From sequence record OR699282.2: a DNA stretch of 64,000 bases; one strand, written 5' to 3'. Positions 38,076-40,740 of the stretch are shown in pieces. Each line of letters begins with the position of its first letter. Positions within the stretch are counted from its first letter, which is position 1. The DNA is from Escherichia phage BAU.Micro_ELP-22. Both the position numbers and the translations under genes were made by a program. The notes under the pieces were generated by a model. The model saw only the letters and a program-made list of their open reading frames with translations. It was not told where the DNA came from and made no database searches.

Positions 38076-38762
38076 ATGGCTACAATGCTTGATCGATATG
38101 GCGTACCGCTCGCTGGCGGTGGTCGTATCTCTATGAAACAACCAAAAGCAAAATACAAATTTCGTGTTATTTTCTTTGGTTTTGGTACTAATGATGATGG
38201 TAATATGATTACACTAGACACCAATACAGTTGGGGCAGTATCTGTATCACATGAAAATGTCACTGTTCATAGTTACAACAGTTCTGCACACTATAAAGGT
38301 AAGTACACTTGGGATACAATTGATGTTGCTTTCCGTGACTCAGTAGGTAATGCTTCTGCTAAAGCACTATACAACCAAATGCGTAAAGAATTCAACTACT
38401 ACAGTCAAGAATCTCGCATGACTGATTCACAATTTAAATTCGAAATGTGGATTCAAGAACTTGATGGTTCTAATAGTGAAAATACAACAAACTTGTTTGA
38501 AGGAACATTGAGTACTTGGGTATGTCAAGGTTGCTTTATTGAATCCAGCAACTTTGGTGATTGGGATTATTCCTCAAGTGAAGCACAAGTTATTTCAATG
38601 ACTGTTCAACCAGATGGTTGTGCTAAATTGGGTCCAAATGGCGAAGCGTTCGGTGATGAAGTTAGTGGCTTCGGTAATCCATCAACTGCTACCTCTATTT
38701 CTGGTGCACAAACTAATATTAGTAGTACTACTCTACCAGATAGTAACTTCTACGAAAATTAA
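38076..38762 (+). CDS. tail tube protein (gp19 family), paralog 1
   Basis: KAKYKFRVIFFGFG and YTWDTIDVAFRDSVGNASAKALYNQM fit the gp19-family pattern; AGGAGA RBS; directly downstream of the sheath. Confidence 0.6.
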   Translation: MATMLDRYGVPLAGGGRISMKQPKAKYKFRVIFFGFGTNDDGNMITLDTNTVGAVSVSHENVTVHSYNSSAHYKGKYTWDTIDVAFRDSVGNASAKALYNQMRKEFNYYSQESRMTDSQFKFEMWIQELDGSNSENTTNLFEGTLSTWVCQGCFIESSNFGDWDYSSSEAQVISMTVQPDGCAKLGPNGEAFGDEVSGFGNPSTATSISGAQTNISSTTLPDSNFYEN

Positions 38763-38783
38763 TTTTATTTAAACTTAATATAT

Positions 38784-38812
38784 AGCCTCGAATCTATTCG
38801 GGGCTTTTTTTA
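38784..38812 (+). terminator. intrinsic terminator (agcctcgaa-tcta-ttcggggct + TTTTTTT)
   Basis: 9-bp stem with one mismatch plus T7. Confidence 0.5.
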
Positions 38813-38857
38813 TGCTAAATAAAGTATAATGCCTTATAAAATAAAAAAGAGGTTGCT

Positions 38858-39634
38858 ATGGCAAATAACATGATTAATAAATATGGCGTTCCTTTACCAT
38901 CGGGGCGTAATCGTTCAATGCTACAACCGAAAGCAAAATACAAGTTTCGTGTTATTGTGTATAATTTCGGTACTGATATAGATGAACGTGATCACATCGC
39001 ATTAGATGTTGATAAAATTGATAGACCTACTGTAACATTTAGTACTCATAAACTATATCAATTTACTACTAATACTTCCTATATAGGTAGTCATGATTGG
39101 GAACCAATTACAATATCTATCCGTGATTCAGTTGGTAATGCATCAGCAAAAGCATTATCACGCCAATTACAAAAACAACTTGACTTTCAACGCAGAATAA
39201 CTTCAAGAAGTGACCAAGATTATGGTTCTTATAAATTTGGTTTGGTTATACAGATGTTGAGTGGACGTAACTCAGATGATACACTAGGAAATCTAGGAAG
39301 AGATACTCTAGTAGATGCTGCAACTGCTGCAACAAATAATTCTGGCTTAGTAAATGCAGTAGATCAATTTATTGGTGGTTCTTCATATAACAGTGCTGGT
39401 GTTATGGAATACTTTGTTTTAACCGGATGTGTTATTCAAAACATATCATACGATTCATTAGATTATAGCTCAAGTTCTCCAGTTGAAATGGTAGTGACTA
39501 TCAAACCAGATAATTGTATACAATTTGATAATATTGAAGAAATGTATAGTACCAGAATTAATTCACTTTTACCTGAAAATGTCAATCAAGGTTTAGATAT
39601 CATTGATCGTGTTTTTGGTAGTGTAGGATTTTAA
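38858..39634 (+). CDS. tail tube protein (gp19 family), paralog 2
   Basis: N-terminus MANNMINKYGVPLPSGRNRSMLQPKAKYKFRVIVYNFG and WEPITISIRDSVGNASAKAL nearly duplicate the 38076 product. Confidence 0.6.
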   Translation: MANNMINKYGVPLPSGRNRSMLQPKAKYKFRVIVYNFGTDIDERDHIALDVDKIDRPTVTFSTHKLYQFTTNTSYIGSHDWEPITISIRDSVGNASAKALSRQLQKQLDFQRRITSRSDQDYGSYKFGLVIQMLSGRNSDDTLGNLGRDTLVDAATAATNNSGLVNAVDQFIGGSSYNSAGVMEYFVLTGCVIQNISYDSLDYSSSSPVEMVVTIKPDNCIQFDNIEEMYSTRINSLLPENVNQGLDIIDRVFGSVGF

Positions 39635-39645
39635 GGAGATAATGA

Positions 39646-40740
39646 ATGAGTGATTTTTTTGATTCATTTGTCAGTACTGGTACAAGTATTGTAAATGGCG
39701 TTATTGATAATATAAACATTGTTCGTGAACCTGCTTTTCAGAACTATAATGCTGCACAACGTGTGTTTGGTACAGCAGGTGAAATGGGGTTTTCATTTTA
39801 TAATTTACCAAAATTCAAAAATAGTTTTATCATAGAATTTGTTTTAACACCTTTTGCAAAAAACTTTATTAAAACTCAATTACCAGATACACATACAGAT
39901 TTTGATGTTAATAATGTATCATGTTTTGTTAAAGATGTAACTTTACCAAGTTTTTCATTTAATATTGAAACAGTAAACCAATATAACAAAAAACGACTAG
40001 TTACTGGTGACATTGTTTACAAACCAAGTAATGTCGTTTTTTATGATACCGTTGATGGTGCTGGTTACTTACTAATGGATGCATATAGAAAGTTTTATTA
40101 TGGTGATTTCTTTGATAAAAATCCACAGTCATATCGAAATGATGTTCTAAGTACACCTGAAAACTTTAATGGTTTAGGTGGTAACTGGGGACGTTCAGTA
40201 ATGAACAATGGAAACTACGATAATCAGTACTTTTTCAAATCAATTAACATATATGAGATTGATAATGAAACATATACTGTACATAACATGATAAATGTAT
40301 TCATTGAAGACGTACAATTAGAAACCAAATCTATGGAAAGTGAAGCAGACCCTTCATTAATATCGTTAACTATGCGATATGAAGCATGTAACAACTTCGG
40401 ACCAGAAGGATATTTGAGCATTGGTGTACCAACTATGGAAATAGCACAACTAATAACAGACACAGAAGGTCTTGGTGTTAGTGGGTTTTTTAAGTATTTT
40501 GGTGAATTAGACGACAAAACCAAAGGAATTTTAACAATTGGTAAAATTATCCGAGCAGGTACGTCAGTTAGTGATATAATAAGTAGTGCTGGTGATATAT
40601 TGCGTGGTGACATTACTCCTGACACAATTCGAAACATAGGTTCTGCTGTAACCAGAGGTGCTAACGCCATAGGGTTTGGTAGTTTGGTTTCTGAAGCAAG
40701 TTCAAAATTCGGATTAGGTAACATTTTAGGAGATTTTTAA
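39646..40740 (+). CDS. tube-family structural protein (364 aa), possibly tube initiator / baseplate-tube junction
   Basis: Beta-rich segments [24 protein letters not shown] and [11 protein letters not shown] resemble the gp19/gp48/gp54 fold family; Gly/Ser-rich C-terminal tail. Confidence 0.4.

Follow-up and report, generated by a model that had tools for sequence, protein, structure and literature searches.

The stretch of DNA analyzed here, 64,000 nucleotides (nt) of Escherichia phage BAU.Micro_ELP-22 (record OR699282.2; below, the window), carries next to its tail sheath gene three consecutive genes of the tail tube family. These genes, named here A (38076-38762, 228 amino acids [aa]), B (38858-39634, 258 aa) and C (39646-40740, 364 aa), lie on the + strand like the sheath gene itself (35017-37680, 887 aa), and they probably encode the tube and two single-ring end pieces of a contractile tail. 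In this set, A is proposed as the bulk, polymerizing tube subunit, B, a paralog of A, as a single specialized ring at one end of the tube, and C, a distant member of the family, as the initiator ring at the baseplate-proximal end. A preliminary description, made from the sequence alone, had reported the same open reading frames (ORFs), whose coordinates and sizes were confirmed, and had considered the duplication unusual for T4-type phages on the assumption that these possess a single gp19. This assumption does not hold, as gp19, gp54 and gp3 of T4 all fall in one PHROGs family, phrog_45. Since T4 itself has several tube-type proteins, three tube-family genes correspond to the usual complement of a contractile tail and are not an oddity. 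Of the two interpretations offered at the time, specialized initiator and terminator subunits are the best-supported reading, and nothing was found that favors a heteromeric tube.

The arrangement of these genes is a stable one. The order sheath-A-B-C is kept in the window, in phage 121Q, in Klebsiella phage RaK2 (ORF041-045), in UE-S1 and in Pectobacterium phage CBB (CBB_204-208), and in all five the trio adjoins the sheath gene within the tail module. Two distant relatives, L007 and L009, possess a sheath gene, one tube-type gene and a C-type gene.

Membership of A, B and C in the tube family

The near-identical N-termini and common core described earlier for A and B were recovered as 41% identity over the first 147 residues (BLASTP E=4e-35), a similarity far beyond chance, with the motifs YGVPL, QPKAKYKFRVI and RDSVGNASAKAL common to both proteins. 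BLASTP detects nothing between B and C. In a profile-profile comparison, the A/B profile (79 sequences) matches the C profile (59 sequences) over 166 columns with a probability of 98.2% (E=5.6e-14). In PHROGs, A (E-86) and B (7.5e-80) are assigned to phrog_4542 and C (E-227) to phrog_13438, both named 'tail tube protein', and the structures predicted for A and C compare with tube folds, in which a beta-sandwich is flanked by a helix. The tube-like character that had been attributed to C is borne out by these results, and profile searches place both B and C in tube families, not in non-tube ones. Fold and profile-level homology together support the membership of all three proteins in the contractile-tail tube superfamily, that of the T4 gp19/Hcp/Pvc1 fold.

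The C family, with about 2,000 cluster representatives, is large and has no Pfam model. No Pfam match, PF06841 included, is obtained at E<=0.1 for A, B or C, nor any for the 59 C-family members. Alignment with the gp19, gp48 and gp54 families, suggested in the preliminary description, succeeds in part: phrog_45 is weakly matched by A (E=5e-4) and C (E=6.6e-4) and not by B, and none of the three matches phrog_230, the 'baseplate tail tube cap' family defined by gp48. At the family level, 42 of the 79 A/B members match phrog_45 (best 1.2e-11), T4 gp19 reciprocally matches phrog_4542 at 5.3e-10, and distant members reach PF06841 below threshold. A homology with the PF06841/phrog_45 family, missed by the curated Pfam cut-off, seems credible. 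Searches of PDB sequences with phmmer give no match for A or C, and direct single-sequence comparisons with T4 proteins (BLASTP, hhalign, Smith-Waterman) are too weak for orthology (gp19 E=0.045, gp54 E=0.041, gp48 E=0.37). In RefSeq the three proteins bear the same name, 'tail tube protein', GenBank records list them as hypothetical or structural proteins, and no published assignment of their individual roles was found in a literature search.

The inventory was made by running the A/B and C hidden Markov models against all six-frame ORFs of the 64-kb window, of 121Q at 243-289 kb, of CBB at 118-150 kb and of RaK2 at 14-136 and 318-346 kb, the latter two regions being the two structural clusters delimited in the RaK2 study. 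No ORF beyond the trio was detected in any phage region scanned. Likewise, tblastn searches with T4 gp19, gp48, gp54, gp3, gp27, gp29 and gp2 returned no meaningful match in the window, 121Q or RaK2 (best E=0.57).

Proposed roles of the three proteins

A is quite probably the polymerizing subunit, as judged from its own terminated transcription unit, its slow evolution and its presence in all the virion proteomes considered. It forms a separately terminated unit like the sheath gene, B and C being part of a packed downstream operon in which they are 11 nt apart. The intrinsic terminators, identified on the + strand by a terminator scan and by reading the sequence, lie 3' of the sheath gene (37687-37716, stem 37687-37708, ending in a T-run) and 3' of A (38784-38812, stem 38784-38805, with a T7 run); each has a 9-bp stem with 5 GC pairs, and both are annotated at equivalent positions in UE-S1. 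A is also the slowest-evolving member of the trio: in 9 of 10 matched contigs, the A protein has a higher percent identity to its window counterpart than the B protein has to its own, and C is intermediate. As a polymerizing subunit, A would stack as hexameric rings inside the sheath, and the ~25 sheath rings of phAPEC6 lead to an expectation of about 150 copies. Its C-terminal tail, 45 aa long and rich in Ser and Thr, ends in a conserved DSNFY motif; as a conjecture, this tail may act as an inter-ring arm comparable to that of phiKp24 gp119. In fold comparison, T4 gp19 and gp54 match the model of A equally well.

The published proteomes establish that all three proteins are incorporated into virions, with copy numbers that are inconsistent between studies. 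In phAPEC6, A is gp275c (25.07 kDa, 2 peptides, coverage 9.2%), B is gp274c (28.76 kDa, 3 peptides) and C is gp273c (40.42 kDa, 7 peptides) (PMC7247149). In the excerpts of RaK2 Table S3 considered here, A (gp042) is represented by 5 peptides (23.3%) and B (gp043) by 3 (17.1%), and C (gp044) is not among the proteins of these excerpts. The corresponding excerpts of the CBB study list A (CBB_205, 6 peptides) and C (CBB_207, 9 peptides) and do not include B, CBB_206 (PMC5259590). Within these sources, only A is thus detected in all three phages. Tryptic peptides of 7-25 residues cover about 27-35% of A, against 48-60% of B and C. After normalization for tryptic accessibility, coverage in the RaK2 excerpts amounts to 0.66 for A, 0.63 for the sheath, 0.29 for B and 0 for C; in phAPEC6 it amounts to 0.34, 0.30 and 0.50 for A, B and C, respectively. 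The use of mass spectrometry (MS) peptide counts as a proxy for stoichiometry was rejected, given the inconsistency of the studies.

C is composed of an N-terminal extension (residues 1-58), a tube core (about 59-270) and a conserved C-terminal extension rich in Gly, Ile and Ser (271-364). Members of its family reach 1,310 aa, and their tube domain can be joined to a LysM domain (P0283) or to discoidin modules of the F5/8-type-C kind (P0235, P0272); such fusions and such a size are incompatible with a subunit buried under the sheath. A C-type gene also precedes the gp4-like gene described below in distant lineages that have a single A/B-type gene. The family fusions to LysM and discoidin, together with the conservation of C in lineages devoid of B, would place it at the baseplate end, and the best reading is that of an ancient, diverged initiator ring between the hub and the first tube ring. 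The core of this single ring would seed the polymerization of A, and its N- and C-terminal extensions would bind hub, tape-measure or baseplate partners, as do T4 gp54/gp48 and other injection-system initiators. In C, as in the usual tube proteins, the hairpin pointing toward the overlying ring is a short one. The general layout of C is similar to that of gp54 (N-terminal extension, core, and a tail rich in Gly, Ser and Ile); the two tails have only composition in common (Smith-Waterman z=-1.0), and a fold search of BFVD with C does not discriminate among proteins resembling gp54, gp3 or gp19. Among the family members, P0235 additionally contains a domain named 'non-contractile tail sheath N-terminal'. 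In L007, a metagenomic relative, the C-type gene (8593-10114) is divided between two ORFs, one of 177 aa with the tube core (E=2.6e-33 against the C profile) and one of 302 aa with the C-terminal part (E=8e-11); the division could be genuine or could come from a frameshift in the assembly.

The B and A clades are supported by bootstrap values of 99% and 98%, and A, B and the single-copy proteins are separated from T4 gp19/gp3 at 97%. Because B groups in this way with A and the single-copy proteins, it is a tube-gene paralog originating in this lineage, with orthology to neither gp3 nor gp54. The neighbor-joining tree failed to date the A/B duplication, since A, B and the single-copy proteins form a trichotomy in which all pairs are about 30% identical. 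Gene conversion or concerted evolution between A and B was rejected, identity being 37.9% within genomes vs 36.5% between genomes.

Compared with A, B contains an insertion of 32-38 aa in a beta-hairpin (residues ~145-182), which is conserved to the same degree as the core (0.66 vs 0.67), and its C-terminal tail differs from that of A. In a provisional alignment at ~15% identity, this insertion coincides with the hairpin of the gp3 loop 117-121. In T4, this loop is located on the head-proximal face and touches gp15 (PMC12929629). The equivalence with a gp15-contacting loop would favor a terminator-like role for B. The gene order A-B-C favors a second initiator, and so does an arrangement frequent in contractile injection systems, in which the tube is followed by a close tube paralog acting as the first ring, and then by a larger adaptor. 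In either case B would form one ring, functioning like T4 gp3 as a terminator or like Pvc5 as a second initiator between C and A. A head-end terminator has nearly an even chance of being correct; a second initiator ring is a tentative possibility that deserves serious attention, and some other role, participation in a heteromeric tube included, is rather doubtful. A candidate for a gp15-type partner is encoded in RaK2 by ORF067w, which matches phrog_227, tail sheath stabilizer (E=6e-18), and T4 gp15 by tblastn (E=5e-5). This 441-aa product (L004 14769-16094) is named 'tail sheath' in RefSeq and more likely represents a tail terminator than a sheath protein.

Alternative arrangements and comparison with other tails

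If both A and B polymerized, either mixed, in alternating rings or in separate segments, the tube would be heteromeric or segmented, an arrangement considered very unlikely. The maintenance of both genes across the whole clade would agree with it, as would the retention in B of the A-like N-terminal motifs and of a DYSSS loop, the equal distance of the single-copy relatives from A and B, and the similar peptide numbers of the two proteins in phAPEC6 (2 vs 3) and in the RaK2 excerpts (5 vs 3). However, the insertion of ~35 aa and the modified C-terminal tail of B change surfaces that a repeating subunit keeps self-complementary, and B evolves faster than A. Unequal expression is suggested, moreover, by the terminator proper to A and by the location of B in the downstream operon; the normalized coverage of the RaK2 excerpts (0.66 vs 0.29) and the lack of B in the CBB excerpts point in the same direction. 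No heteromeric tube is present among the tube structures returned by fold searches with A and C, and to our knowledge no heteromeric phage tail tube is known. If true, such a tube would be of a kind not known as described for contractile tails. The reading in which A and B jointly build a heteromeric or segmented tube is improbable; in a milder version, B would be an independently evolved tube terminator, a convergent counterpart of gp3 produced by tube-gene duplication within the RaK2-like clade.

The two end pieces could also be exchanged, C being a gp3-like terminator at the head end and B a gp54/Pvc5-like initiator at the baseplate end. This is unlikely, as the LysM and carbohydrate-binding modules of the C family and its lengths of up to 1,310 aa are typical of baseplate or tail-tip rings and not of terminators buried in the neck. 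Every contractile tail needs an initiator, and lineages devoid of B keep C; a separate tube terminator is described as 'special' to T4, and the gp3 loop corresponding to the insertion of B faces the head (PMC12929629). The last arrangement, in which B, or else C, is the bulk subunit and A a minor component, is again very improbable. It draws on the raw MS coverage of A, the lowest of the trio in phAPEC6 (9.2%), on the predominance of C peptides in phAPEC6 and in the CBB excerpts, on the 290-aa length of the phiKp24 tube protein, and on the reasoning of the RaK2 authors that a larger sheath calls for a larger tube protein (PMC3622015). Low coverage of A is nevertheless expected, because only ~27% of the protein is accessible to tryptic MS. 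A is also the first gene after the sheath, the one with its own terminator, the most conserved and, within the proteome excerpts, the only one found in three phages; variable fused modules in the C family and faster evolution of B also oppose this assignment.

The reading in which A forms the tube and B and C its end rings has close functional parallels in T4. In the 2016 T4 baseplate structure of Taylor et al., gp48 reportedly adopts a tube fold. With gp48 counted, T4 has four tube-fold proteins (gp19 as the tube, gp54 and gp48 as initiators at the junction of baseplate and tube, and gp3 as the terminator), against three detectable here. The recent in situ structure of the T4 neck (2026) describes gp3 as 'very similar to' gp19 (PMC12929629). 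A T4-related Campylobacter phage is already annotated with a 'Gp19 tail tube protein II'. The tube genes of T4 are nevertheless distributed over three loci, whereas the three found here are clustered beside the sheath gene, and A, B and C are 40-60% longer than gp19. B may work like gp3 and yet stands outside the gp3 lineage. C and gp48 have the same length (364 aa), which is a coincidence: comparison of the C family with gp48 gives E=0.37 by hhalign and z=0.2 by Smith-Waterman.

Extracellular contractile injection systems of the PVC/Afp type possess a comparable set, with Pvc1/Afp1 as the tube, Pvc5/Afp5 as the first tube ring and Pvc7/Afp7 as the hub-proximal adaptor. In contrast to these systems, the genes of the window belong to a T4-related virion module with gp13-, gp15- and gp4-like neighbors, C is devoid of LysM, and sequence identity is limited to 9-18%. 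In the jumbo Klebsiella myophage phiKp24, the gene adjacent to that of the sheath likewise encodes an enlarged tube protein, gp119 (PDB 8BFK), whose terminal extensions reach neighboring subunits (PMC9700779).

The tube candidates put forward in the RaK2 paper were gp106w and gp107w, a distantly related, beta-rich and abundant pair of virion proteins of ~21-25 kDa from the same phage group (PMC3622015). This candidate pair was rejected, as hhalign detects nothing, phrog_9326 classifies it as 'head and packaging', and the genes lie ~70 kb from the sheath gene. ORF106w and ORF107w (L005 20012-21331) are paralogs of each other. The tube-family genes of RaK2 are instead ORF042-044. The value of these results is mostly one of annotation tidying, and the general picture of contractile tails is unchanged; the division of the trio into bulk subunit (A), initiator (C) and end ring (B) offers a starting assignment for fitting cryo-electron microscopy maps of RaK2-, 121Q- and phAPEC6-type tails.

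Relatives of the window and neighboring genes

Over the region 35000-41200, the window shares 99.9% identity with Escherichia phage JP4 and 99.7-99.8% with PBECO4, 121Q and phAPEC6, all four being Asteriusvirus jumbo myophages with genomes of ~350 kb; UE-S1 is 87% identical. The sheath protein matches phrog_10581, tail sheath (E=0), with PF17482 at residues 783-883, and corresponds to gp277, identified by MS in phAPEC6 (PMC7247149). It is enlarged with respect to T4 gp18 (887 vs 659 aa), as had been noticed at the outset, and only its C-terminal domain aligns with the latter (36% identity, E=1e-25). The sheath terminator and A are separated by a gap of 395 nt, in which a small ORF of 41 aa is located (37760-37885, + strand, by sequence reading); its equivalent in UE-S1 is UES1_500, and L007 has a 112-aa ORF at this position.

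On the other side of the trio, the start of the next gene overlaps the stop codon of C (ATGA). This gene (40740-41168, + strand) encodes a T4 gp4-like head completion protein with a TnsA-like nuclease fold (PF08722 E=2e-16; phrog_218 'head closure' E=2e-40), and a gp4-like neighbor 3' of the C-type gene also exists in RaK2, CBB, L007 and L009. Over 33125-41168, the window successively encodes a gp13-like neck protein, a small ORF, a deoxynucleoside monophosphate kinase similar to the product of T4 gene 1, the sheath, A, B, C and the gp4-like protein. In T4, genes 1, 3, 2 and 4 are grouped (650-3338 of L002). This synteny between T4 and the window gives a weak hint that a tube-fold gene close to genes 1 and 4 may be ancestral.

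The search for regulatory signals brought no shared late-promoter motif: CTAAATAW occurs upstream of several structural genes without enrichment (14 copies, with 12.3 expected). The octamer of T4 late promoters, TATAAATA, is depleted, with one copy in the whole window vs 11.1 +/- 3.3 expected. Relatives of this phage encode a gp55-like late sigma factor. Further downstream, a 180-aa protein (42321-42863, + strand) is called 'Hsp70 heat shock protein' by phrog_16152 and RefSeq and has no Hsp70 match in Pfam. The original note on 121Q lists it as a structural protein, and the Hsp70 label looks unreliable.

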